The notes under the pieces: model-generated | What the model was told of the DNA's origin: nothing | Seen by the model: the letters and a program-made list of their open reading frames with translations, nothing else | Database searches by the model: none | NCBI GenBank assembly: GCA_038087875.1 | Contig: CM075977.1 | Location: 243,102,001-243,166,000 of the forward strand | DNA: 64,000 nucleotides | Direction: 5' to 3' | Source: Malacoraja senta | Lineage: Eukaryota | Made by a program: the position numbers and the translations under genes | Shown here: in pieces, positions 8,006-47,750 of the stretch | How positions within the stretch are numbered: position 1 is the first letter of the stretch | Layout: the number at the start of each line of letters is the position of its first letter

Positions 8006-11000
8006 AATAGTAAGATTAAACGAGAACTTACCAGTTTGAAGTTTGATCTTTATTTTATGAGGAGTTACGATGAGCGATTACGTGAAGAACGGCGTCAGCC
8101 CGCATGAGCGTCAATCTTCAAAGCAGCGGTGTGAAATAAAAGAACACAGAAGTTGAACTGAACATAGTAAGATTGGAGAGAACTAGAAACTACCAGATGA
8201 CCTTTATAATATGAGGGTTGGGAACGGAGGGCACGTAATAGCTCATCATAACTCCTGGAGGAGTGAGATTAGAAAATATAGTATCTACTCCTGCATAAGT
8301 CAAAACCCCATTTTAAACACCTGGAGATGGTCTGAACTGATACCTTCTTATGAGGTTATTTGTAACTAACAAACATTGCTAGTAGCAGAGCCTCTAAGAC
8401 TCTAGGTGACCTTAATGTATTGTTGTAAATGTGTGCCCACACATAACCGAAGGTCCATGGGGTATGCCATGAGAACTAGTTTGAGACCTTATGCGCCTGG
8501 GCTGCTCTGCTTAACTAAATCATAAACATTTATATTATTTGCAGGTGTAACCATCCTGTCCAGTCGCAATTGATGTAATGACTGGACCCGTTGCGCTGAA
8601 AGGAGCGTCATGAGGATAACTACCTTATGAGAGCCGGGCCAAAGATAAGAATGTAGCTGGAGCCCCCTGGTGAAGTAGTGTTAACACAATGTCAATATCC
8701 CATACTTCCGTGTACGTGGGCCTGGGAGAACTTGTGTGAAAGGTATCCTTTATAAACTGGATATCAGAGGGTGAGACCTGACAGAGCGGGTCCCGCTCGC
8801 TGCAGCAAATATGATGAGAAGGCAAGCTGGGCACAGTTAATGGCACTATAACTTAATTTATTGTCAAGGACCCATTTGAAAATGAACTCCAAGACGTCAG
8901 TATCCGTGCCGTATTATATGTAACATAGCATTTAAACAAAACGCTTCCCATCTCCTGAAGAGGAAATGTACTGCTTTTTTGGTGCTTTCCGTGCACTCTG
9001 CAGTGAGCACATACATGGATTGGTCTGACAACCCGAGCCGCAGGAGCAGTCTTCTCAGAGTCTACAAGTCAATGAATTGATTTAATCATGCAGAGGCTGG
9101 TTTCCCGAGTCACAGGCTGAACCAGCAAAGTTTTATGTTTAGAATACCCATATAAAGTTCTATTATTATTCCCAACATAAGCGGGAACCATGGCTGCATA
9201 GGCCAGTCAGAGAGTACGCAAACCCCTGAAGCGGGATCTTGCTGAATTTATTGCAAGACCCGACTGATGAGGCAAAATGGAGAAAAGACATAAAAGAACA
9301 TTCCTCCCCGTGTAGCGAGAATGTATCTCTCGGCACAGTGATGCCACATGTTTTGCAACCGGTGAATGAGCCTGGATGCAAACATATCGATATTCGGTGT
9401 TCCATCGAGCCGTAATGTCATAAAATACTTTGTGATCTAACATCCATTCTGTGTTGTCATTGATTTTACGTGATGATACACCAGCGCCAATTGAGGTTAG
9501 GTAAATTATGACCGGATACTTTGACTTGATTGCACCCATGTGACTAACATATGCCACCACCACAGTGTATCAACTTGGAGTTGAGCATGCAGATTATGTA
9601 TATTCGCATAATAACCCGTTACCCCATAGAATGCACCTTGTGTCTATAGGTAGTTGATACCAATAACTGAAGAATTGGTAATTCATGCAAATCCCAACCA
9701 CCTCCGTAACTAGAGATGGCATTTGTAATTTTCCATCTTTGAGCACTAGCATCAGTTTGTAATATAACTGAAGATTTACTGACCAAAAGCTACTGGAGCA
9801 ATGCTGAATACTACTCGTCCACCATTGTGACTTTGGTATCTTCAGCTGGTAATAGCATAGGTCTGTTAACAATGACCGACATGGCACTTGAGAGGTTATT
9901 ACTTTGTACGTTGTAAGTTCTGAAAATGCAAAGGCCCAATTTGCACAGCTGAAACACAGCTACTCTATTGCCAATTACACTTGATGAATAGAAGGCTGCT
10001 TAATAACAACAAGGTTGTTACAGGCTATTAATTCCAATCTCTTGCCCCAGGGCGGAGTCACAGACAAATTAATAGTTAAAGGTAAATCCAAGTAATCAAT
10101 AACTCTAGTTGGTATCAACTTAAATTTAACTGGATGGATGAGGAACCTCAATTTCTCAAATATAGTTTGCAGCTGAAACAGTTGATTTTTAGCAAAATAC
10201 AGCATTTAGAATATCATCGAGTTAAGCCATAACAAGTGTTTTTGAGCTCTGAGCAGCCCAAGCACCGGTTTAGTAATTTGGTAGATGACCTGGGAGCTGA
10301 AGTTAGCCCATTTTGCAACGCATTAACTGTCATCATTGCCCCATCCAGATAAATTTCAAATGTCTCCGGTGATCCCTGTGAATGGGACCTGAATAGTATG
10401 CATCTTTGAGATCGATGCATGCCATAAAGATCCTATGGAAATCAGTTGTTAGACAGTAACAAAGTTCCATATTCTGAAGAGTCTATATTGCACATGCGAG
10501 TTAAATCAAGGATGAACGAACATCCTCCATCTTTCACAATGAACAGGCCACGCCTGCCATAATTCCGTGCCTGCCTCGAACGACAACTCTGGCCATATTC
10601 CCGAGCCTGTCTCTAAAGGTAATCCTGGCCATAATACTGAGCCTGCCTCGAAAGACAACTCTGGCCATAATTCTGAGCCTGCCTCGAAAGACAAATCTGG
10701 CCTTATTTCTGAGCCTGTCTTGAAAGGCAATCCTGGCCATAATACTGGGCCTGCCTTGAAAGACAACTCTGGCCATAATTCTGAGCCTGCCTCGAAAGAC
10801 AACTCTGGCCATATTTCCGAGCTTGTCTCGGAAGGCAATCCTGGCTGTAATACTGAGCCTGCCTCGAAAGACAACTCTGGCCCCAATTCCAAGCCATGCT
10901 TGGAACCCTTGTATACTGTGCAGAATAAACCAATCACATGTTATCATTTTAGTTTATAAATGGATCTGAATCTCATGTTATCATTGTCATTTGTACAAAA

Positions 11001-12369
11001 ACAAGTGTAAATATTACCAACTTGTAAATGGTCCGCATACCCCATGTTTTGGAAGAACCACACCCACCTACCTCCATGGTTACCGGTGGTCTTATGGTAA
11101 GCCCAAAGGCCCCTGATGCAGGTTCTATTTCCATCCTTGATTGGAGAGTAGGACTGGTAGGGTGTGTGGATTCCATATTTCCTGAGACCGGCTTGGACCT
11201 TAGCCTGAAAGACCTCGGCCCAGCTTTCAAGCTGCCACCAGCTTCAGTGAAATGCTTACTGCCGATGAGGCGCGGGGTGTGTCATCGCCGAAATGATGAA
11301 GCTTTGCTCATCGTTGGTACCTTGATTAGTCTGACAGCTTTTGCTTCCTCATCCAGGTATTACCTGTTGGATAAGTCTTACCTGAAGAGACAATTCGGCG
11401 GCTGGTTTCATTTCCTGGATTTCATGCCCCCTCCAATGTCACCCCTGATAGCGCTGTTCACTGCTGGCACTTGTAGCGTGAGGGGAACTCTGGCCCCTTC
11501 TGGGTTTTCTGCCAACGGCTGGAACCAACTCTTCCGGCAGTAACCCCTTCATTTGCGAGTATTTCCTTGGAGCCATATGCATGTGCTCCAGTATATTCCA
11601 TGGACATACTTTCGAATTTGAAGTCAGTTACACACTGACCACTCGCACTCCCCTCCACAGAGAGGGAGATTCGTAGGCAGCCCTGGAAACAGGTGCTGCC
11701 GCAGGCCCCTGAGGATACCTGCGCTGATATGGTCCCTCCTACGGACCTATATCAGGAGCATCACATTTGTGGGATAAAATGCCCGAGGGTGCTATCCATG
11801 CTCCATGTGAGTTAAACGTCTGAGGACGTACCCAGGTATGTCGGAGGGGAGGCCTCCTGGCCTGACTCATCCGAGTCCATAGGCCTGACTGACTTATTCC
11901 TGGTTTTACCCCCTTTCTGGGACACCATAGCGGTCTAGGAGCCACTGTCAGCGACTCGGGTGGCGAGTCCGACTTACTCCTGGTTTTACCCCCTTTCTGG
12001 GGAACCACAGCGGTCTGGGAGCCACTGACCCCATTGTCAGCGATTTAGGTAGCGAACCAGACGGCCGCCGGCTACCCGCGCTTCCGCGGTCCGGACCGGG
12101 ATCTCCCACGGTCGATAGCCGGTTTCCCCGCGGCCCGTCCGGACTTCGCCCCGAAATTGTGTCCAGCAGGAAAACTCTGTAACAGAGCTTCCTGCAGTCA
12201 AAAAAGAGAACCTGGAATTAAGTTAAAAACTTACCTGCAGGTTTAAACTTACCGCTGGAAGGAGCAACGCACCCGCCAGTCAGTCGTTGCGCAATGCGTT
12301 GACATAATGACGCGCATGCGGGCTGACGGCGTTCTTCACGTAGTCATTCATGTGACTCCGAAGTAAAAT
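8006..12369 (-). mobile_element. DIRS1-type tyrosine-recombinase retrotransposon, copy A (heavily decayed, most of the ICR deleted)
   Basis: Left terminus ATTTTACTTCGGAGTCAC.. at 12369 and right terminus ..TTTAATCTTACTATT at 8006. Remnants of gag, RT (LQNGLTSAPR), RH (VAYVSHMG), MT (NTEWML) and YR (PRPTYTEVWDI). Confidence 0.93.
10551..10885. repeat. 36-bp minisatellite (about 9 units, 108-bp higher-order period) inside the RT region of DIRS A
   Basis: Unit GAGCCTGCCTCGAAAGACAACTCTGGCCATAATTCT. Every third unit is the EPVSKGNPGHNT variant. Confidence 0.95.
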
Positions 12370-21422: not shown

Positions 21423-24400
21423 ATTTTACTTCGGAGTCACGTGAGTGACTACGTGAAAACCCCGCCAGTGCGCCTGCGCGTCATTACGTCAGACGCCTTG
21501 ACGCAAACGGACGTGAGGAGCAGAGCTCCTACAGTGGTTTGTAGTTTTTCAACTACAAGGTAAGTAAAAACTTTTTTCATGTTTTCCAGGTCCGTTTACT
21601 GTGGGTCTATGGGGATTTTTACCACAGACGCCATGGAAAAAACGGACAGGGGGAAGAGGCGAGCGACACAGCCGACAGAAAGTCGGGAGTCCGCGGTTAG
21701 AGACCAACCACCTCTAAACCCCGGTACAGTCGCCAGCGGTGAGCATAGCGACTGTGGACATGGGGCTGGTGTCCATGTCTTTTGCCCGTCAGCGCCTGTC
21801 GGGCAAAAGACAAAGTTTAAATCCCAACGGCCCACGGAGGGAGTCCCAGGCAATGGAAGTAGCTCCAGGGCTAGATACTGCTTTCGAGCGTATTGCCCAA
21901 ATAGAAAGCCTTTTACATAGGCTGTTGGAGCAAAGTTCACTCAGGGAGGAGTGTACTGAAAGCCAAGCTGCTGGAAACAGCTCAAACAGCTCCTGGTACA
22001 GGGCTAGATACTGCTTTCGAGCGTATTGCCCAAATCGAAAGCCTTTTTCATAGGCTGTTGGAGCAAAGTTCACTCAGGAAGGAGTGTACTGTAATCCAAG
22101 CTGCAGGAGCAGCTTAACAGCACCTGGCTCAGGGCTGATGGAATACACCCTCAGAAATGAGGAGAGTGCTACGGGTCATGAGATTTCAGACCCCGACTCT
22201 GACGGTGAGGCTGTACAAGGCGATGAACGGCAGCTGCCAGATGTTCCACCCCTGGCAGTAGGATTCACTGCCCCGTCAGGGTCAGGAGAGCCATCAGGAG
22301 AAGAACTGGCCTCCTTAATAAATTACTTGGTTTACCATTAGCTGGAACAGCAGGAAATGGATGAGACTGCAAGAAGTAACTGTGGGTTGCTGAAAGCAGC
22401 AGCAGTGAACCAAATTATCTGGAATCAGTTGCAGAGAATATTAAAGCTGCTGGGTTCTGGAATAACTGCTTTTACCAGAATAGCAGGTAACAACCAAAAG
22501 ATGACGAAGTTGCATCAGCAAGCACTGGGGTTGCTATGCAGCACCCACTTCGAGATCAATTATCTGAGGAAGGTGCTATACGGCCTACTATGAATCCGAA
22601 ATTCGCAGCACTCTGCAAACCAAGTAATATACAATTACCCAACTTACTCTTTGGAGAGGATCTCGGGAGACGTATTAAAGAGTTGGAAGATGAAGCGAAA
22701 ACAGGATTGATAAATACATCAATGGTTGCAAAGTCTGTAAAGAGGAAGTATCCTTTCAGACGTCATACGGATCCTAGACCAGGACCAAGTCGCTCATCAA
22801 CGCAGGGACGTAGCTGGCAGCCTGCAGCGGGAGTAAGGAGCAGTGGTTGTGCTTCCGGGAGAATCCAGGGATCTCAGAATACTCAAATGACTCAAGAGGT
22901 AGGTGGACCTGGTTCTCAGGGGAACATACTAACTGGATTAAGTCCAAAAGTTGGAGGCAGATTACGTCTCTTCTATAAACATTGGATGAAGATTACTTCA
23001 GATGTGGTAATTCTGAATAATATACAAGGATTTCGAATTGAATTCAATCCAAATTATGATTTGCCTGTCCAGCATGTTCCTAGCAGAACTCTCCACTTTG
23101 CGAAGTAATGGAGGTTCAAGTTGCGCTTCAAAACCCTATTTATAAAAGGTGTTATTAAAGAATCAGTCTACCAAATTCACCAATTTGGGTCAAATATATT
23201 CCCTCGATCAAAAAAGGATGTAGGATTATTATAGACTTGACAAGTCTGAATCCTTTTGTTCAGTGTTTGTTCACTTGCAAGATATGAAGTATTTTAAATT
23301 TACACGGATGAACCAATTAGGGCAGTTCAAAGCTCAGCCTAAAGGGTTAACGTTCCCTTCCAGAATATTTATAAAAATCAATTCTGGGGTTGCTGAGAGC
23401 CAGGGGCATGTACTAATGGCATACCTGGATGATGTCCTGATTATAGGAAGGACAAAACAGTCAACAGAAGCATCGGTTGCAGTAATAAAATCAAACATTT
23501 GAAAGTTTGGGGGTTTCTAAATTCATCCAAAGAAATCAAGGTTAAAAACATGTTCCTCGATTAATTATTCGGGGTTCACAATTGATTTAGCCCAAATGCA
23601 AATTACTTTGCCCAGTGAAAAAAGGGTGGAGTTGATTAAAGATTGCAGTAATCTGTTAAACGAGCAAAAACCTCTAATCAGACAGGTGGCTCGAGTACTG
23701 GGAAAATTAGTAGATTCCCAGCAGTCCAGTATGGACCATTACATTATCAACAGCTGCAGAGAATTAAAGAACAGGCACTGAGACTAAATGCTGGTCATTT
23801 TGATAGAACCATGCAAGTAACAACAAATGCTGTTTCTAAGCTGCAGTGGTGGATTCTACATGTCTCAAGCAGTTCAGGCAAAGTGCTGATTGAACAACCT
23901 TCCATGATATTACAAACTGATGCCAGTGCACTAGGATGGGGTGCAACTGACTTAACATGGAGCTGCGGAGGCAGATGGAATCAGGAAAAGTTAGTGTTAC
24001 TGCAGACATGGGGAATTACCTATTTGGAGCATTTAGGAGGTTTCTATGGACTCCAAGCTTATGGTTCTAACACAACTAAAAGGAAGGTTCAAGTTCAATT
24101 TAATAAACACAACAGTAGTTGCCTATATTAATGATATGGGTGGAATTAAGTCGGTGTCATGTGACAAAATGGTTAAATCAACTTTGGTCTTGGTGTATTG
24201 AAAAGAACATTTGGATTTCAGCTATCTATCTACCAGGTAGAATGAACACGATAGCAGACACCTGGTCACGAAAAGTTCCATGATAATAAAGAATGGATGT
24301 TGAATCAAGAGGTATTCAATGATATAGTGATCAGATTTGGAATGACCGACATCGACTTGAATCATCAGCTATCGAGATATATCTCATGGAAACCAGATCC

Positions 24401-24648
24401 AGGAGCAGTGGCGATTGATGCTTTCTCGCTACATTGGGGTGGTATGTTTTCATATATATTTCCACCTTTCTGCCTCATAAGCCAATGTTTGCTTAAAATC
24501 AGGCAAGATGCTGCTTCAAGGGTATTGGTAGTACCACATTGGCCTATACAGCCATGGTATCTGTTGATATTAGAATTAACAACACAAATGTTGATGAAAG
24601 TCCCAAAAAGGAGTAATTTATTGCTGCACCCTGTAACAGGGTAACAAC
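21423..24648 (+). mobile_element. DIRS1-type retrotransposon, copy B (decayed; 3' part lost in the assembly gap)
   Basis: Left terminus ATTTTACTTCGGAGTCACGTGAGTGACTACGTGAA. Motifs: gag (AIRPTMNPKFA), RT (MAYLDDVLI), RH (LQTDASALGWGA), MT (YIFPPF). Confidence 0.93.
21866..22136 (+). repeat. About 133-bp tandem duplication within gag of DIRS B
   Basis: CAGGGCTAGATACTGCTTTCGAGCGTATTGCCCAAAT starts at both 21866 and 21999. Confidence 0.92.
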
Positions 24649-35990: not shown

Positions 35991-37501
35991 TTAACAAGCC
36001 AGTTGGGTTTCTACAACAACTAGTTTGCTTTCACTGAAACTACATTTTATTCCACTTTGTTTAATTATTTCAATTAAATTCCCCAGATGCCATTAGCTCA
36101 ATGGTCCAGAAGTTGGGTTGCTAATCCAATAATCTAATTGTTAAACTTTTACAGAATGATGTCTTTAAACAATTGCTTTCTCTGTTCATCCACATCCTTC
36201 AATGCTGTAAATTGAATTTATGCTTCCAGCTCTCATTTTGTTTTGTTTCCTAGCTCTTCTGGGTTAACAATTCATATTCGGTGGAAGAAAATATTAATAT
36301 CCTTTCTTACTTAATTTTGATTGGAATTGAACAAGGTAACAAAAGGGTGTTTGGATGTGACAATTGGCATCTCTCGTTGACCAGGTGTGGAAGAGGTCCG
36401 TGGGAATTGGCAAAGTAAGATTAGACATATTACCTCTTGACTAGGAATGTGTTGAAGGGTGGATGGTAAATGTAAACATGAATAGTAGACAGAGATAAGG
36501 AAGTTTGTTTCTCTCAGCAGTCTGTTACATTAGACCACCATCGCCCCCTACCGCTAGTAGATACGTTGCAGTAAACGGGGGCGATGATTGGCTCGGATAG
36601 GGGATGGTGCGCGGTCCGCCTAAAAGGTGAGATAGAATAATGTCAAGATGCCCTTGTATTGTGTTTGACTTGTATTAACCATCTGTTGATGAATAAGATT
36701 GACATAAACAAAAAGTATGTTATGACTAATGAAATAATTGGTACCCATGTAGTAGATAGTTTATTGTCATATAGTTGTATCTAACAAAAAACAAAAGTTG
36801 TTTACTGCACAGTAAAACTGTCAGCTAATTCTGCTATGAAGTCAGGGAACTTGTGAGCAGTCAACTGCCGCCATCTCTCCATGATATCATGCAATATAGT
36901 CTCTTGAAGCAAACCTGCAAGGTCTCCGCATTTCATTTTTCTTTAATTTCCCTCTAAATTAATCTCTTTCACAATTGTAAATTGAACTCTTTTAAACTGT
37001 TTACATCAGACTAGATCCAGCCCCCTCAGATCTAATTATTAAATGATCCCAAACACTTTCTCCCATTCTGCAGAGCCCTGAAGCAGATTACTGGGATCCT
37101 CTCAATGGTAGATTAGCAGAATCCCTTCAGAATACCCTGAGCTCAAAAACAAGAATTTATCTTTGAACATTATACATCAACATGGATTCCCCCCAAAAAA
37201 TAAACATCGGGACTTTGTAGTAGCATGTACCTGTGAGAATATAGATCTGCAGGGGATGCGCTATGTGTAACAAGGAATAAAAAAAAAAGTTTATGTAATT
37301 TTACTTCGGAGTCACGTGAGTGACTACGTGAAGAACCCCACCAGGACGCATGCATGTCATATATCGCTACACACATTGCGAAACAGTCACGGTGGAACGA
37401 CGTTCCCCCTCAGCGGCAAAGTTTAAAAGCCGGGAACTACAGGTAAGTGATACTCTGCGTTCTTTTTGTTTTCTACATCCTGTCTTACAGGTGTAGAGTC
37501 A

Positions 37502-38352
37502 ATGGACAAAACGAGGAAAACCAAGAAGGATGCTCCAAAGCTGAAGAGGGGTTTCCAGAACAAACATCAAGTGTGCGAGGGGTGCAGGAAGACCAAAATC
37601 TACTGGACATGGTGTCCCAATTCATACAGCCAGACCAAACTGGCCAAAACCTGGAACCAAAACTAGCTGCCAGTATTGACTATATGTCATTTAAGCAGCT
37701 ACAGGAACAGGCTGTATTGGACACCACGGCAAGACATTTGCCACCAGGGAACTGTACATCCCTGAATGTTCCCATTGTAAATAATTGCATATGGAAACAC
37801 GTCGGAGCAGGAGTTAGAGGCATGGATGTCAAACTCCAAAAAGTACTAAAGCTCCTAACAACGGGAATAACAGCTTTCGCCCGGACAGTAGATGAAAAGG
37901 AGATGTCGCAGAATCAACAGGATGCACTGGCACTCCTCTGTAATACCCAATTCGAAATTAACGTCATCAGGAAGAGTGCCATCCGACCTGCTTTAAACCC
38001 GAAATTTGCAGGTCTGTGCAAACCTGGAAACATAAAACCACCAATTTTACTATTTGGAGGTAACCTATCCAAACAAGTCAAAGAGCTTGATGAGGAGGCA
38101 AAAACCCTGGGGCTCATCAAAGCGACATCATCAAAACCCTACTATGGTCATAAACAGCACCCTTATGCACCCACCAGTAGAACAAGACAAACTGGTGAAA
38201 GCTCAAAGGCCAGGTACACTGCACATGGGTCCTTTTTAGGCCATGGCCCAGACCGGCCTTCGAGGAAGATGCGCAAACCCCCAACGCCAACCCAACCACA
38301 AACCCAGACACCGGCGCCTCAACCTCCACGAAGGATTCACAAAAGGAAGTAA
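37502..38352 (+). pseudogene. gag: DIRS gag-like ORF1 (copy C)
   Basis: Homologous to ORF 46324-47490 (NCTSLNVP.VN..IW; AIRPALNPKFA). ATG 37502 is out of frame because of an internal deletion. Confidence 0.85.
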
Positions 38353-38369
38353 ACCAGCCACTGGTATCT

Positions 38370-40293
38370 ATGGAGGTAGGTGGGTCTGGTTCCTTACGAA
38401 TTGCAGGAAGTATGGAGGTTGGTGGGAGATTACACTTCTTTCTGGATGAATGGAGTATGTTGACTACAGACACTTATATTTTAAGCAGTGTCCAGGGATA
38501 TACCATATAATTTATACACAAACATAGCCCTCCAGTTGAGCATGTACCGAACCGAATGTTCGTACTTTCAGGTAAAGAAAAATCAGAAGCACATGCTGAA
38601 CTAGAGCGGCTTTACGCAAAACGGGCAATTGAAAAAACCCAACACGAATCGCTGGAATTTGTGTCCAATATTTTTACCAAAAACAAAAAATATGGTGGTT
38701 ATCGCATCATCATAGATTTGACAAATTTGAATACTTTTGTACAATATATTCATTTCAAAATGGAAACCTTTGTTACTGCTAAACAATTGATTTCCAAAGG
38801 TTACTTCATGGCTAGCATCGATTTAAAAGATGCTTACTATTCAGTCCCTATATGAGGTGACCACAGATGTTATTTAAAATTCAACTGGATGGGACAGCTC
38901 TGGCAGTACAGAGCACTACCAAATGGGCTAACATCAGCCCCTAGGCTGTTCACTAAAATTTTGAAACCAGCCCTATCGTTTCTGCGGAAACAAAAACACA
39001 TGATGATGGCATAGCTAGATGACATAATCATTGTGGGCAAAACTTTGGAATTGGCCAAAGAAACGGTAACAGCCACAAAACAATTATTTGAAAAACTGGG
39101 GTTTATCATTCATCCAGTTAAATCTAAATTAAACCGTTCCACCACAATGGATTATTTGGGGTTCACCATTAACTCAGTTCACATGTCGGTGACTTTGCCT
39201 AAGGAAAAGGCTATAGCCTGAATAGAGGCTTGCAATAACCTCATTGACATCAGTAAACCATCCATCAGATTGGTAGCAAGAATAATTGGCAAAATAGTGG
39301 CTGCCTTTCCAGCCACACAATTTGGACCTTTACATTATCAAAATTTACAGAGGGCAAAAATACGAGCACTCAAATTTAATGCTGGTCATTTTGACAGACC
39401 AATGAAGCTAACAATCGAAGCCATAATGGAACAAAAATGGTGGAAAGGTAACATTCGGCATTGTTCCAATCCAATCATTATCAGAAACCCTTCTATGGTG
39501 CTACAAACTGATGCCAGTGCACTTGGTTGGGGTGCTACCAATTCCATCTCCAGCTGTGGAGGCAGATGGACTGCACAGGAGGCGTCATTATTACAAACAC
39601 TGGGCATACACTACCTGGAAATGTTGGGTGCATTCCATGGCCTAAAGTCATATTGTTCTTGGTTATATCACCAGCATGTTAGACTACAGATTGACAATAC
39701 CACCGTGGTAGCATATATCAACCACATGGGTGGAAACAAATCGATATCATGTGACAATCTGGCCAACACAATTTGGCAATGGTGTATCCAGAAAAATATT
39801 TTGATATCAGCCACTTACCTATCAAGTAAACTAAATTCAGTGGCAGACACCAGGTCACGCAAATTTAATGAAAACACCGAATGGATGTTGGATAAAAAAG
39901 TATTTGCTGATATTACAGCATGGTATGGAAAACCAGATATCGATCTATTCGCATCCAGGCTTAATCACCAGTTATCAAACTATGTTTCATGGGAACCAGA
40001 CCCTGGGGCAGCGGCGACAGATGCATTTTCGCTGCATTGGGGGAAATTGTTTATTTATGCATTCCCTCCTTTCTGCCTCATCAGTCGGGTATTAAGGAAA
40101 ATACAGCAAGACTGCGTCTGGTATTTTGGTAGTACCCGATTGGCCTACTCAACCATGGTTCCCTGTGATACTCGACATGGTATTAGAACCATGCATCACC
40201 ATCTGGCATAGACCAGATTTACTGGTTCATCCCGTAACAAGGGAAAGCCACCCATGTCATAACCATATGAACTTTTTAATTTGTAGAGTCTAA
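38370..40293 (+). pseudogene. pol: DIRS ORF2: reverse transcriptase, RNase H and N6-adenine methyltransferase-like domain (copy C)
   Basis: IDLKDAYYSVPI, LPNGL, A*LDDII, QTDAS..GWGA, DNTTVVAYINHMGG, DIDLFASRLN, YAFPPF. Confidence 0.95.
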
Positions 40294-41264
40294 AAGTACC
40301 TCTACTGCAACTGGGACTGACGGACCGAACAGTGAACATTATCTCAGCGGCCCACAGGTAGTCCACCAAAAAACAGTACCTGGTATACATCAGGAAATGG
40401 GAGATGTACTGTCACAGAAACAACATCACCTACAGATCAATGAACATCCTGTCTGTTCTGGAATTCCTGGCAGGCCTCCATTACGATGAGGGGCTCAGTT
40501 ATAGTGCCATCAACTGCGCCAGATGTGCCCTGTCAACATATCTATACCAAGGAACAGAGCGTCATTCTGTTGGGACTCACCCCCTAGTAACAAAACTTAT
40601 GAGGGGAATTTTTAATATCAATCCCCCAAGAACCAGGTACTCCCAAATATGGGATGTGAGTATTGTCCTGACTATGCTAAGGAATTGGTCTCCAGCAAAA
40701 ACTCTGTCCCTACAAAGACTGACACTGAAAACAGTCATGCTGATGGCATTGGTCACGGCACAAAGGGTACAGTCATTACATAAATTAAGACTGGACAACG
40801 TGACTTCTTCATCTGGAAATATAACGTGTCATATTTATGAATTAGTCAAGCAGAACAGACAGGGGTCAGCAGGCCTCAATATAGAATTTAGGGCTTAACC
40901 GACAGATGATCGTCTCTGTATAGTAAGACATTTACTGCTATATATGGAGAACACGAAAATCATCAGAGGCAAAGAGATGGCACTATTAATCAGCCACAAG
41001 CAACCTCACAAAAAAGTGACGGTCCAGACCATCTCAAGATGGCTGAAACAGGTTCTCTTAAAGGCTGGGGTGGATACTAACATTTTCAAATCTCATTCCA
41101 CCAGGGCTGCAGCTACATCGGCAGCTATGCAGTTGGATGTTCCGATGGGTCAAATCCTCAAGACAGCAGGATGGTCAAGGGAGAAAACTTTCCAACTATT
41201 TTATCATAAACCAGTAATTAAACCTGGAACGTTTGCAGAAACAATTTTAGGTTCTGTAATATAA
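40287..41264 (+). pseudogene. DIRS tyrosine recombinase (copy C)
   Basis: Catalytic motifs AQRV, SHSTR, AGW, FY and an N-terminal SAM-like region. Two in-frame stops. Confidence 0.95.
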
Positions 41265-41428
41265 TTTCACCCCATAAATAGGGGCTATAATTTGGTGTTA
41301 ATAAATTTATCATGGATTTCAATGTCGTATTCATGTCTAAACATGTTAACACAATTCCTCTCATAGTCATTAAGGCAGATGTGATGCATGGACTCGTTTC
41401 CACGGCATGCAATCACAGAGCTTTGAAA

Positions 41429-41540
41429 TCTTCACGTAGTCACTCACCTGACTCCGAAGTAAAATAGTAAGATTAAACGAGAACTTACCAATTCTAAGTT
41501 TGATCGTTATTTTATGAGGAGTACGTTGAGGGAATACGTG
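41429..41540 (+). promoter_or_regulatory. Internal complementary region (ICR) of DIRS C
   Basis: 41429-41465 is the reverse complement of the left end. 41463-41540 is the reverse complement of the right end (41657-41734). Confidence 0.95.
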
Positions 41541-43028
41541 CCCTCCGCTCCCACCCTTGATCATATACTCAACTGGTATCTTCTTTTCTAATCTTACTAT
41601 GTTCAGTCACACCGCTGCTTTGAAGAATGACACGCATGCGTCCTGGCGGGGTTCTTCACGTAGTCCCTCAACGTACTCCTCATAAAATAACAATCAAACT
41701 TCGAACTGGTAAGTTCTCGTTTAATCTTACTATTAATGTGTGTATGCCAGTGCCTCGATCCTGTTATTATTAATCTACATCAGAAAGGATTTATTAAAGT
41801 GTATTAATAATCTGAGTGAAATTAAAAGCTACTTACTTAAGGTGCTAAAACCATCACTTACTGTAAATAGCACAGGAGAATTTCAGAAAAAATCCACCAG
41901 ATTACACAGGATTACATATAAATTAAAGTGGAGAAACCGGTCTTTCAAAAGGATATTTGTCCTTGGTACAAGCAGTAATCTGAATCCCCAGTGCTTCTCC
42001 CTATTCCCATATCCTTTTATCCTCCTTCAACCATCTATCTAAACTATTGTTAACATTTGGCAGACTCATAGGCTATTAACCCAGTCAGTAAATTCAGGGC
42101 TAAAGATTCTGGAGGGCTATTGGAAGTCAGCAAATTCCCACATGAGGGACTGCTAATTGAAATAAAAATGCAAAATATTGAATGGATTAAATTGAAGCCA
42201 TATTTTAAAGACAAGCTGAAAAATACTGTTGACAGAAAATCATCAAAGCTAAAATAAATGTGAAAATGTTTATTTTGGTGATATTTTCATGAATATAGTG
42301 GAACAACCAGATGAATTTGAATGCGTTAGGGGAACAATAAATTAAAACACCTAACATATAGGTTATGCTTAGCCACACGGGGTATTGGATATTATAAGAT
42401 CTCTTAACTTTCCAAAATGCCACTTGCAGTATTTGTGGGCAAAGATCCAAATAAATATTTCTTGTCTGTTTTCACTAAGGAGGACGGTATGGATGATAGT
42501 GAGTTTATGAAGGATATGTTCATTATCTGGAGCACATCAGCATGTGGAAGGAGGAGGTGTTAGATGTCCTGCACCACTTCTTGGTGGATAAACCCCCATG
42601 AATGAATGATAGCTATTTCAAGGGAAGAAAATGCTAGGTCCTGATGGAGATTCTTACATCTCAGGTACTAGAAATTTAGATAAACCTTAGGGATGAATGA
42701 TATCCATCCCAGTATACAATGGGAAACAGGAGAAGAAAATGTTAGCCCCTGGTGGAGATTTTTGCATGTTGGTTAGCCACAGGTGAAGATCCCAAAATGA
42801 TGGATAAATAGTAAGATTAAACAAGAATTTACCAGTTTGAAGTTTGATCTTTATTTTATGAGGAGTTACGATGAGGGATTACGTGAAGAGCCCATCAGCA
42901 CGCATGCACGTCATCCTTCAAAGCAGCGGTGTGGAGTCACAGACAGCAAACATTGACCTGAGAATAGTAAGATTCGAGAAATTAGAACTACCAGCTGACT
43001 TTTATGAGGAGGGGTTGGGAGCGGAGGG

Positions 43029-43141
43029 CACCTAATCCCTCATCGTAACTCCTCATAAAATAAAGATCAAACTTCAAACTGGTAAGTTCTTGTTTAATCT
43101 TACTATTTTACTTCGGAGTCACGTGAGTGACTACGTGAAGA
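43029..43141 (-). promoter_or_regulatory. ICR of DIRS D (contains circle junction CTTACT-ATT-TTACTTC)
   Basis: Near-perfect complement of 42807-42885 and 47634-47670. Confidence 0.95.
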
Positions 43142-43313
43142 TTTTAAAGCTCTGTGACTTCATGCCGTGGAACGAGTCCATGCGTCACACACTGTATGGT
43201 TGACCAATGGAGAGTGGACAAAAAAGACTGTTCAGTCATGACATAAATGAAACAAGTTGACAATTTAATGTACAAAAGAAAACAACAATAGTAACTTCTC
43301 TACCCGAGAGGGT

Positions 43314-44291
43314 CTATAAACCCAAACTTAAAACTGAGTTCACAAACACGCTCGGTCTGGCTAAGGGTTTGTTATAGAACGTCTGAAACGTGCGTTCTGA
43401 GGACTATCCTGCGGCCGATAAAATCTGGTCTAGCGGGACGTCCATGACCCTCGCTGCAGACGTAGCTGCAGCCCTGGTGGAATGAGATTTAAACATTTCA
43501 GTATCAACCCCAGCATCTGCCAGAACCTGTTTCAGCCACCTGGAAATGGTCTGAGCTGAAACCCTCTTATGCAGTTTCTTGAGGCTGACCAATAATGCTA
43601 ACTGAGACCCCCTAAGCCCCTTGGTGATCTTGATGTATTGCTGGAGGTGAGCAACTATACATAATTTGGGATCCAAAGTGTATGCCATGAACTGTAACTT
43701 AAGACCCGAAGTACCTGGTCTACTCTGTTTAATAGTGTCGTACACAAAAAAGGTGATACCACTGACAGAGGTGAGCATCCTGTCCAGACGTAGCTTCTGC
43801 AATGACTAGACCCTTTGAGCTGACACTAAAGCCATGAGCATGGCCACCTTGTGCGTGAGCCAGAGTAGAGACAGGGATGTAGCTGGAGACCATGAGCGAA
43901 GTAGAGTTAGGACCACCCCTACATCCCAAATTTCGGTGTATCTGGGCCTAGGAGGGTTCGAATTGAAGACTCCCCTCATGAACCTCGATACTAAAGGGTG
44001 AGACCCCACAGACTGGTGTTCTGAACTCGGCAGCAAGTATGACAACAGCGCACTTCTGGCACAATTTAGAGAACTATAGCTTAATTTCTCATCGAAATGC
44101 AATTTCGAGAGGAACTCCAAAACATCCGTAATGTGCGCTGCGTCATATGAGATATCGGACTGCGCACTGAACACTTCCCATTTCCTTATGTATGAGGCAT
44201 ACTGTTTTGGGGTACTGTTTCTCCAGGCCGCAGTTAGCACATCCACCGTACGATCAGCTAGTCCCAGTCCGAGGAAAGGTCTTCTCAAAAC
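43314..44291 (-). pseudogene. DIRS tyrosine recombinase (copy D)
   Basis: ORFs 43806-44297 and 43404-43802 are in one frame: SAQRV, KSHSTRAAATS, AAG*, FYNKP. Confidence 0.95.
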
Positions 44292-46241
44292 CTGCAAATC
44301 AATAAGTTCAGCCGATCATGCAGAGGATGTACTTCACCAGAAATGGGATGAGATAGCAGAGACCTGCTTTTGGGAAATATCATGACAGGTTCTACAACCA
44401 TGCCCAGGATAAGAGGATACCATGACTGAGTGTGCCAGTCAGGGACTACCACAATGCCGGAGGCAGAGTCATGCTGAATTTTATGCAGACATCGACTGAC
44501 AAGGCAGAATGGGGGAATGCATAGAAAAACATTCCACCCCAATGTAGCGAGAACGCATCTACCGCTACTGCCCCTGGGTCTGGTTCCCATGCAACATACT
44601 TCGGTAACTGATGATTTAATCTTGAAGCGAACAAATCCATATCCGGTGTTCCATACTTAGAAACAATATCCTTAAACACTCTATGATTCAACATCCATTC
44701 TGTGTTGCCATTGAATTTACGTGACCTGGTGTCCGCCACCGTGTTGAACCTACCTAGGAGGTAGGTAGCTGAAACCCAAATATTTCGAATGATGCACCAG
44801 TGCTAAATGAGGTTAGCCAATTTATCACAGGATACTGATTTGATTCCACCCATGTGATTTATGTATGCCACCACTGTGGTGTTATCTATCTGTAATTGAA
44901 CATGCAGATGGTGCATGTGCCCACAATAAGCCTTCAGACCATAGCGGACTGCGAGCAACTCCAAATAGTTAATACCATGCACCTGTAGAAAAGATAGCTC
45001 ATGCACATTCCACCTGCCACCGCAGCTAGAAACGGTGTCAGTGGCACCCCATCCCAGAGCACTGGCATCAGTCTGTAAACCAACAGAAGGACTTTCGATC
45101 GAAATATTGCCAGAACAATGCAAAATATTGGCTTTCCACCACTGCAGCTCGGCAATAGCTTCAGCCGGTAATTGCATAGCCCTGTCAAAGTGGCCCGAAT
45201 TATGTTTGAGTGCCTGCACCTTTGCTCTTTGTAATTGCTGATAGTGCAAAGGTCCATATTTAGCTGCTGGAAAAGCAGCCACCAATTTCCCAATCAAACT
45301 GGCCACTTCCCCAATTGAAGGCAGCTGCTGCGAAATAAGATGATTGCAGGCTTCTATTAACTTCAATCTCTTGCCCTCAGGCAAAGTCACAGACAGGTGA
45401 TTGGAGTTAATAGTAAATCCCAAATAATCCATAACTCTGGATGGTGTCAACCTGGATTTTACTGGGTGAATTAGGAACCCCAACTGCTTAAACACGAGCT
45501 TGGTGGCTGAGACTGCCGAAATAGCCAATACCAGAGTTTTTCCTACTATGAGGATATCATCCAAATAAGCCATTACTATGTGTTTTTGAGCTCGTAATAG
45601 CGCAAGGCAGGTTTCAATATTTTAGTGAATAACCTGGGAGCTGAGGTTAACCCATTAGGCAACGCTTTAAACTGCCATAGCTGCCCCATCCAGTTAAATT
45701 TCAGGTATTTTCTGTGGTCCTTGTGAACAGGCACCGAGTAGTAAGCATCTTTGAGATCAATGCATGCCATGTAACATCCCTTGGAAATCAATTGTTTGGC
45801 AGTAACAAAGCTTTCCATTTTGATATGTTTGTACTGCACATAGGCGTTAAGTTGGGTCAAGTCCAAGATGATGCGGCACCCCCCATCCTTCTTTTGCCTG
45901 GTAAATATGTTGGATACAAATTGGTGAGGTTCATGATTTGTTTTTTCAATTAACCTTTTTGCACATAATGTCTCAATTTCAGCCTGAACTTCCAAACCAT
46001 CCTGTTTTGAACGAACAAAGGTATGGTTTGGGGCATGCTGCGTGGGTGGCAGTGAGCCAGAGAACTCAATTTGGAACCCATCTATATTGCGCAGTATGAA
46101 CAAGTCAGATGTTATCCACCACCATTCATGCAACAAGAAACGTAACCTACCACCAACATGCGATAGACCCACACCCTGTATGTTCCATAGCGAACCAGAC
46201 CCACCTACCTCCGTAGTTATTGGTGGATTCTGGATGTTCAT
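44285..46241 (-). pseudogene. pol: DIRS ORF2 RT-RNaseH-MT (copy D)
   Basis: IDLKDAYYSVPV, LPNGLTSAP, YLDD, TDAS, DMDLFASRLN. Ends LLICRF*. Confidence 0.95.
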
Positions 46242-47463
46242 TTTCTCCCCCGTTGCTTGGGGAATTGAGGTGCTGGAGTGCGCCAGCTGTGCATCTTCGT
46301 TGTCGGCCGGCTTGGGCCATGTCCTAAAAAAGACTTCCGGCCGGTTCTTTCGGTCCTCGAGCTGGAGGTGGTTTCCGCAGATCTCTGGTGCAGGTAGAGG
46401 CATAGGGGTGCTGGCGTCGAAACGACGACTGTTTGCTCACTGGTGGAGCCCGAAGTAGCCCCACAGCCTTCGTCTCGTCGTCCAGGTCCTTCACCTGCTT
46501 GGACAGGTCTTCCCCAAACAGAAAATTGGGCGGCTGCACATTAGTGGACTTGCACAACTCCGCAAACTTGGAGTTGAGAACAGGACGAATGGCATTCTTG
46601 CAAAAGCAATTTATTTCAAAGTGTGCATTGCACAACAATGCCATTGTGTCCCATTGCGTCTCAGATAAGGTGCTGCCGTCCACATACCTGGCGAATGCTG
46701 TCACCCCCGACGCCAGCAGATTCAGGATTCTCTGTAATTTGACCTCTTGGGTCTTAGTGCCACCACCAATGTAGCTCCAAATGGAACTATTCACCGACGG
46801 TACCTTGAGGGAGGCGCAGTTGCTGGGCGTGTGGTACCTCATGGCTGTCTCCATCATCACCTGCTCTTGAAGCTGGTGGGAAGCGAGGTAATTAATGCTG
46901 GCCGCCAGCTCTTCATCCAGCGGCTCCCCAACTAGCAACGGCATTGTGAACTTGGAGACCATGGTTGGCACCTCTGCTTCTCGTGGGTCCCGTGTCGAGG
47001 GACGTTCCCCCAGCATCTCAGTGCAATGTGAGTTCGCCCAGGACTGGTGGTTTACACTCCCATCCTCAGATGGGGAGACATAATGCAGCCCTGCACCAGG
47101 CGCTGCTGCGAGCCCCCGAGACCCGCTCTGATATGACTCCCGACCGTGGAGCATATCATGTTGGAGCATCTTCTCCATAAGATGCTCCACTCGGGAAAGG
47201 CGTCCGACAACGCTCACCGCTGGAGGAGGCGAACCCTCCCGGCCGGACTCATCCGAGTCAACCAGCCTGTTGGACTTGCACTTGGCTTTCCCGCCCCGCG
47301 GGGTAGCCACAGTGCTCTCCATGGGCACCGAGCCCAAAGTCGCTGGCTGTGGTGTCAGCGACCGCGTTGGTGAAACGGACTGCCACCCGCTGACCGCACT
47401 CCCGCGGTCTTCCGAAGCGGTTCTCCCAGCGGCCCGTCGAGACTTCACCCTCGCCTTATCCAT
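46238..47463 (-). pseudogene. gag: DIRS gag-like ORF1 (copy D)
   Basis: ORF 46324-47490 read from MDKAR. A frameshift near 46385 is inferred, since the alternative frame gives SFLGHGP...RK* as in copy C. Confidence 0.88.
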
Positions 47464-47750
47464 GCTTGTCCGTTCTTGAAGCTGCAACAAGAACGGAAGA
47501 CAAACGACCGCAGACTAAGTTCAAGAACTTACCTGGAGCTCTTTTAAAACTTACCGCTGCTGGAGCGACGCGCCTACCAGCCAGCCGCAGCGCCATGCGT
47601 TAGACGTAATGACGCGCATGCGTGCTGACGGGCTCTTCACGTAGTCACTCACGTGACTCCGAAGTAAAATCCCAGGCTAAGGGCCTCACTGGAAATTTTG
47701 TCATCTTCATGGGTCAAGGTGGTGCATTTTAGGAAGTCAAATAGTGATAG

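Follow-up and report, generated by a model that had tools for sequence, protein, structure and literature searches.

Results

DIRS1-like elements in the window

Four DIRS1-like elements from four families lie within 40 kb (8000-47670) of the window, i.e. the whole stretch of 64,000 nucleotides analysed, which itself forms part of a 1.94-Gb genome; these related elements, termed A to D, were compared. Element A runs on the reverse strand from 12370 to about 8000 and element B on the forward strand from 21423. Element C occupies 37298-41734 of the forward strand, with its gag stop codon at 38350-38352, the pol ATG at 38370, a candidate donor at 38376 and a candidate acceptor near 40286. Element D (42804-47670, reverse strand) comprises inverted terminal repeats (ITRs; termini 47670-47609 match 42853-42914), an internal complementary region (ICR; 43029-43141, complementary to both element ends), a gag-like ORF (46238-47463, with its ATG at 47463 and the family frame ending at TGA 46240-46238), a pol-frame region (44285-46331) and a tyrosine recombinase (YR) ORF (43326-44291). 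Stops and indels disrupt both C and D; in D the pol-frame region is broken and the YR ORF contains stops.

Domain searches gave a match to RVT_1 above the cut-off in the D pol and weak matches, below the cut-off, to Dam and RVT_3 in C; RVT_1, RT_RNaseH and a weak Dam match were found in the pol of relatives. Matches to Phage_integrase and a SAM-like domain fell below the cut-off in the window copies and above it in the relatives L126 and L146. DIRS1-like elements, including DIRS-1 of Dictyostelium, are described as having ITRs, an ICR, gag, an RT/RNase H/methyltransferase and a tyrosine recombinase (PMC3266345; here and below, PMC and bioRxiv accessions are cited for the excerpts available). 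With an RT/RNase H/Dam-like pol, a YR ORF downstream of pol, and ITRs with an ICR, elements A-D match that definition and show the same ITR/ICR/gag/pol/YR set, although, unlike in known DIRS1-like elements, the YR overlaps pol only at the start of YR and not over a long stretch. Among named sequences, the nearest gag relatives belong to the skate Leucoraja erinacea (up to 78% identity), which suggests a skate or ray as the host.

Each window element has a 99-100% match on a single other contig, C2279 (locus pairs L001/L002, L031/L032, L073/L074 and L098/L099), which is probably a haplotype duplicate of the window region in the assembly. Copy C is without some 385 nt of the gag 5' region at 37541 (forward strand), which its near-duplicate L032 retains. 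At several other retrieved loci (L063, L065) a second DIRS element was also found close by.

A slippery heptamer at the gag/pol junction

In the gag frame of the D family, a T TTT TTA heptamer (U UUU UUA in RNA) lies at 46325-46331 on the reverse strand. The preliminary description had read this site as TCT TTT TTA GGA in D and as TCC TTT TTA GGC in C, and both readings are borne out: D has six T at 46331-46326 followed by A at 46325, and C has C TTT TTA at 38232-38238 (forward strand). The latter is a private variant of the T TTT TTA of its family, the five-T state being present, among the C loci, only in the window copy and its duplicate (2/30). As deposited, the gag frame of D ends at a TAG within the heptamer. 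The upstream indel that had been assumed in order to restore this frame is real, since D lacks a base near 46384 that is present in 28 of the 29 other family copies, the sole exception being its 99% duplicate, L002; with the missing base restored, the frame reads S-F-L-G and continues to the gag stop TGA at 46240-46238. Copy D itself is dead, and the signal is a property of the source elements from which the D family arose.

The proposed identity of the −1 frame with the pol frame was likewise upheld by the RVT_1 match and by the segment FRxWPxPAxxEDAQ common to C and D, and in both copies the first ATG 3' of the site is indeed out of the pol frame. A Kozak-like ATG directly after the site in C and D was considered and set aside, being absent as a conserved feature from other families. 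By itself TTTTTTA is frequent, occurring 18 times per strand in the window; only 2 extra copies were found in the 34,276 nt flanking gag/pol in 18 lineages. The heptamer at the junction is a real feature, far beyond chance.

Within the skate families, six or more T followed by A were found at the site in 27/30 D, 28/30 C and 27/30 E loci, confirming the heptamer at the family level. These counts are of the best-scoring copies among thousands of candidates and, the copies being 91-100% identical, show only what the source elements carried; within-family retention (27-28/30) is therefore not used here as evidence of selection. T-run length variants of 5, 7 and 8 T occur in 3 of the 30 D loci, and a long pol frame is present in 4-6 of 30 loci in families C, D and E. 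The pol frame of family E is −1 relative to gag in 30 of 35 loci, in frame with gag in 4 and +1 in 1. In-frame gag-pol copies that carry the heptamer were considered as counter-examples and rejected, as they are over-represented through the use of a fused query; the two inspected change frame at differing places.

Conservation in distant relatives

Two gag-core patterns that do not cover the site were used to scan metagenomes and yielded 38 loci forming about 17 clusters, since several repeat one family. Their gag cores have a median identity of 37% with the fish families, and the four loci tested have the same domain set as the fish elements. TTTTTTA is present at the junction in the gag frame in 24/38 loci and in any frame in 29/38. 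It is absent from 9/38, of which three belong to one lineage with U UUA UUA, two differ by point or length changes, three have the sequence past gag cut or replaced, and the last is L146. The U UUA UUA lineage (L125, L132 and L133) has an AUG 2 nt past the gag stop and a pol-frame stop just upstream, and its pol stops early in both contigs of sufficient length; the lineage is dead or has switched to reinitiation. Among viral contigs, the 53 pattern matches included no relative.

Constraint on nucleotides rather than peptide

Codon choice was compared across 21 chosen representatives of lineages in which the site could be located, 10 from fish and 11 from metagenomes; L146, truncated loci and families A and B were excluded. 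The codons NNT TTT TTA are present in 19 of the 21, against an expectation of 0.021 per lineage from gag codon usage for Pro-Phe-Leu; as the lineages are related, nominal p-values overstate the case. In the same representatives the codons of an invariant control motif, LFGxDL, vary widely, and identical residues use the same codon only 0.24-0.38 of the time.

A wider protein set (156 proteins, 130 with the core motif and 114 with a tail of 45-160 residues) has Phe-Leu in 100 of the 114 gag tails; as the motif formed part of the search profile and the lineages are related, counts from this set tend to be too high. Lys, Gln, Glu, Met or Trp precedes Phe-Leu in 1 of these 100 proteins, compared with a background of 24.8%, as expected if the preceding codon must end in U, which the codons for these residues cannot. 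Pro precedes Phe-Leu in 77/100 and Gly follows it in 86/100, and in 94/100 the residue that follows has a codon starting with G. Codon usage across these lineages shows a constraint at the site that acts on nucleotides rather than on the peptide.

Reading frames and the start of pol

Fifteen clusters combine a gag-frame heptamer with a pol in the −1 frame. In 14 of them no stop interrupts the −1 frame between the site and the first AUG or the conserved pol start, whereas over equal lengths the −1 frame upstream of the site is open in 3/15 and the +1 frame in 0/15. Nine of the clusters have a pol-frame AUG ahead of the conserved pol start and six do not. The AUG-less lineages L123, L126 and L135 have unbroken pol frames of 633-677 codons. 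In the five AUG-less lineages checked, the first AUGs are scattered from 25 to 112 codons in, and translation from these would remove a conserved N-terminal pol segment; in most AUG-less lineages the first AUG is still ahead of the Pfam RT core.

L146 also lacks an AUG before the conserved start and has an unbroken pol of 671 codons in the −1 frame. Its gag frame carries, 138 nt past the gag core, the heptamer G GGU UUU, which ranks among the shiftiest (PMC5009743); in other lineages U UUU UUA lies 105-156 nt after the core. There is no AG at the homologous place. Although a single example, L146 is consistent with frameshifting and not with a splice acceptor.

A second possible route to Pol, overlooked in the preliminary description, is provided in D by an ATGA at 46241-46238 (reverse strand), where the first pol-frame ATG overlaps the gag stop, as in stop-start reinitiation. 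This overlap is present in 26/30 D and 21/30 E loci and in L138; in the C family an AUG lies 20 nt past the gag stop in 21/30 loci. Given the ATGA in families D and E, reinitiation may add to or replace frameshifting there.

Sequence downstream of the heptamer

The GC-rich, partly palindromic sequence reported after the site is present, in D as GGCC-N6-GGCC (46305-46318, reverse strand; 6 nt after the heptamer). It amounts to a 4-bp hairpin, a weak candidate for a stimulator, with folding z scores against shuffles of −0.45 in D and +0.48 in C. Prediction of a downstream stem-loop or pseudoknot, as the preliminary description had proposed, gave no stimulator consistent across loci. MFE values for the 70 nt downstream at 22 loci, compared with shuffles, gave z scores of +1.1 to −2.9, mostly near 0, the few loci near −2 to −3 having no structure in common, and a crude H-type pseudoknot search (20 shuffles) found nothing in 10 of 18 cases and no shared pattern.

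The flanks of the U-run are often complementary (GGUCU/AGGCC, AGCCU/AGGCU; window 46321-46335, reverse strand), such that a small hairpin could form with the slippery U's in its loop. In these flanks 62 of 76 cells pair, versus 12-34 when the register is slid, with at least 3 further pairs in 14/19 lineages. The complementarity follows in part from the Pro/Ser and Gly codons. The hairpin might mask the AG from the spliceosome.

Splice-like signals and the recombinase

A candidate donor, GAG|GTAGGT, in phase 0 of the pol frame (46203-46211, reverse strand) and a candidate acceptor, TTTGCAG|GT, in phase 0 of the YR frame (44290-44298, reverse strand) were identified in D. Donor-like GAG|GTRAG or CAG|GTRAG motifs past the gag stop, in phase 0 of pol, are present in the fish families as well as L123, L126 and L135, and C, D and L123 also have a phase-0 acceptor ahead of YR. 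In the fish elements the first 37-102 codons of YR contain no AUG; an AUG is present at the start of YR in L123, L126 and L159, and an in-phase AG is missing there from L126 and L146. In most copies of the skate families C, D and E a pol-frame AUG precedes the donor.

A Gag-YR fusion, made by the frameshift together with a splice, is possible on the basis of these motifs; as the pol-frame AUG precedes the donor in C, D and E, and several metagenome YRs start with AUG, it is not required. Raw RNA reads from related species (four runs on a C-family locus and four on D) contained no splice-type joints, with coverage of the D site being near zero and the reads on the C-family locus coming from both strands.

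A further donor, CAG|GTAAGT, lies in the 5' leader in 6 of 9 skate lineages. In the window this strong donor is followed about 50 nt on, immediately ahead of the gag ATG, by an acceptor-like tract (37443-37491, forward strand, and 47532-47482, reverse strand). An intron of about 50 nt is very short for a vertebrate.

Discussion

The comparative evidence leads us to assign a probability of about three in four to the proposal that U UUU UUA is a programmed −1 ribosomal frameshift site giving Gag-Pol in DIRS1-like elements. In such a mechanism, most ribosomes would finish Gag 22-48 codons past the heptamer and the minority that slipped by −1 would make a Gag-Pol fusion (RT, RNase H and methyltransferase), so setting a high ratio of Gag to Pol. 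With respect to the features of canonical sites, the heptamer has the form X XXY YYZ in the zero frame and the −1 ORF is open from it in 14/15 clusters; a stable stem-loop or pseudoknot 5-9 nt downstream was not found, the fish families having only the 4-bp hairpin. Thus, the core of the original proposal, that Gag-Pol is made by a −1 shift, gains strong comparative support from conservation, codon choice, the open −1 frame and L146, whereas the stimulator that it implied does not. With no stable structure found downstream, such a shift would depend on the heptamer and its immediate context, and may be of low efficiency.

Several of the same observations bear on other explanations of the site. 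If TTTTTTAG|G were a 3' splice site, joined to an upstream donor, a pol message lacking most of gag would result. Consistent with this possibility, the AG matches the U-run in conservation, a G following the heptamer in 18/18 lineages to make AG|G or AG|A, in keeping with the G-starting codon after Phe-Leu in 94/100 proteins, and other splice-like signals, i.e. the leader donor of 6/9 skate lineages and the donor past the gag stop, are present. The context of the AG is nonetheless poor for an acceptor, with a median upstream pyrimidine content of 0.45, another AG within 16 nt in 17/18 lineages and a branch-like motif in 1/18, and no donor within gag has both a shared position and the phase needed. 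Splice acceptors tolerate CAG and C-substituted tracts, yet these occur in 0/21 representatives, the only CAG form being in the defective A family. After splicing from the leader, the first AUG of C and D would not be in the pol frame, and L146 is without an AG at the homologous place. We regard a splice acceptor as improbable. The U-run could alternatively act in transcription, with RNA polymerase II slipping on the T-run and adding a U to bring pol into frame in the RNA; one extra U would have the same effect on the frame, and genomic variants of 5, 7 and 8 T do occur (3/30 D loci). That the run is only six long and locked to the gag codons as X XXY YYZ, and that the heptamer of L146 differs and has four U, makes slippage of the polymerase very hard to credit.

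The ATGA overlaps in 26/30 D and 21/30 E loci and in L138, together with the AUG 20 nt past the stop in 21/30 C loci, raise the possibility that Pol is translated chiefly from its own AUG, reached by termination-reinitiation or leaky initiation, the heptamer being minor or a relic in these fish families. Such an AUG is missing from 6/15 clusters, however, including lineages with an unbroken pol, and reinitiation leaves unexplained both the retention of the heptamer nucleotides and the open −1 frame up to the AUG; we consider it unlikely as the chief route, although reinitiation and frameshifting could operate side by side. A role for the site merely as a conserved Gag peptide motif, P/S-F-L-G, without an RNA function, might account for the frequent Pro before (77/100) and Gly after (86/100) Phe-Leu. 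A peptide motif would permit synonymous codons, and the identity of NNT TTT TTA in 19/21 representatives (0.021 expected), set against the variable codons of the control motif, largely refutes the peptide-only reading, to which we give very little weight.

Frameshifting at U UUU UUA is itself well known, the HIV-1 gag-pol shift site having this sequence (PMC3561942, PMC5009743). The DIRS sites resemble that of HIV-1 in that the identical heptamer is read in the gag frame and pol lies at −1, but differ in that the HIV heptamer is followed, beyond a spacer, by a stable stem-loop, of which no counterpart was found in the DIRS sites, and in that the DIRS pol encodes RT, RNase H and methyltransferase with no protease or DDE integrase (PMC3783388). 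The HIV site depends on the heptamer and tolerates varied downstream signals (bioRxiv 10.1101/469692), and alphaviruses of the Semliki Forest complex shift efficiently at U UUU UUA with no compact 3' structure found (PMC2569925); by analogy with the latter, a DIRS site lacking a stimulator could still work like a canonical signal. As with the DIRS site, the alphavirus 6K/TF heptamer, which is the same, was first recognised by conservation beyond amino acid need (PMC2569925). In that case the shift is proven by mass spectrometry and reporters and yields a short product, in contrast with the long Pol fusion predicted for DIRS by comparative analysis. Among animal LTR retrotransposons, pol is in the −1 frame in 28 of 51 surveyed, many with classical heptamers (PMC5009743); unlike DIRS, those elements carry a DDE integrase, and DIRS is unmentioned in the first 300,000 of the 449,034 characters of that review.

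Programmed frameshifting has already been proposed in the DIRS order, for the Ngaro recombinase (Poulter and Butler 2015, cited from PMC13003380). In the quoted text, that proposal concerns the RT/RH-to-YR (pol/YR) overlap, with no site named, and not the gag/pol junction of DIRS1-like elements. No gag/pol shift site is mentioned in the available excerpts of PMC3266345, PMC6681497, PMC3783388, PMC7192593, PMC5633606, PMC9210276, PMC4495291, PMC8547959, PMC9341512 and PMC5890265, and the excerpts of the DIRS literature examined do not state the mode of translation of the overlapping genes. A DIRS1 gag-pol frameshift is unreported in the open-access literature searched; Goodwin and Poulter 2001, Poulter and Goodwin 2005, Poulter and Butler 2015 or Repbase may mention one. 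The place of this well known mechanism in DIRS1-like elements thus appears to be new within the searched literature.

A frameshift at this site, if confirmed, would extend retrovirus-style Gag-Pol frameshifting to a protease-less order that integrates by a recombinase, would support DIRS ORF1 being a true structural Gag, and would provide a natural set of U UUU UUA sites seemingly without a stimulatory structure. The site, being defined and deeply conserved, makes the question of a DIRS Gag-Pol testable with a 100-nt reporter. When these elements are annotated, the heptamer and not the first AUG should be taken as the beginning of the pol model. We propose more tentatively, and with considerable doubt, that in a broad DIRS1-like clade a structure-free U UUU UUA combined with a downstream splice gives Gag, Gag-Pol and Gag-recombinase from one start codon. 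Both enzymes would then be tethered to Gag, with Gag-Pol coming from unspliced and Gag-recombinase from spliced RNA; this arrangement implies a Gag particle, which DIRS elements are not known to form.

The heptamer has been lost in families with a broken pol, i.e. A, B and the L125 type. At the homologous site in A (11204-11212, reverse strand) the T-run is cut to three in 25/25 loci, and the gag/pol junction of B (22790-22904, forward strand) is shorter, with no T-run and with gag and pol in one frame, also in 25/25 loci. A long pol frame is present in 0/25 loci of each family, the pol of B stopping within 51 codons of the conserved start in all 25; as neither has a long pol frame, A and B are not counted against frameshifting. 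Both families look non-autonomous. Family B (21423-24600, forward strand; L073-L097) is young, its copies being 98-100% identical, and many of its disabling lesions are shared; these lesions and the in-frame junction suggest a non-autonomous DIRS amplified in trans. In element A, a tandem array of a 36-nt unit, with about 12 copies by span (10509-10940), replaces part of the pol start, and its copy number varies among the family A loci.
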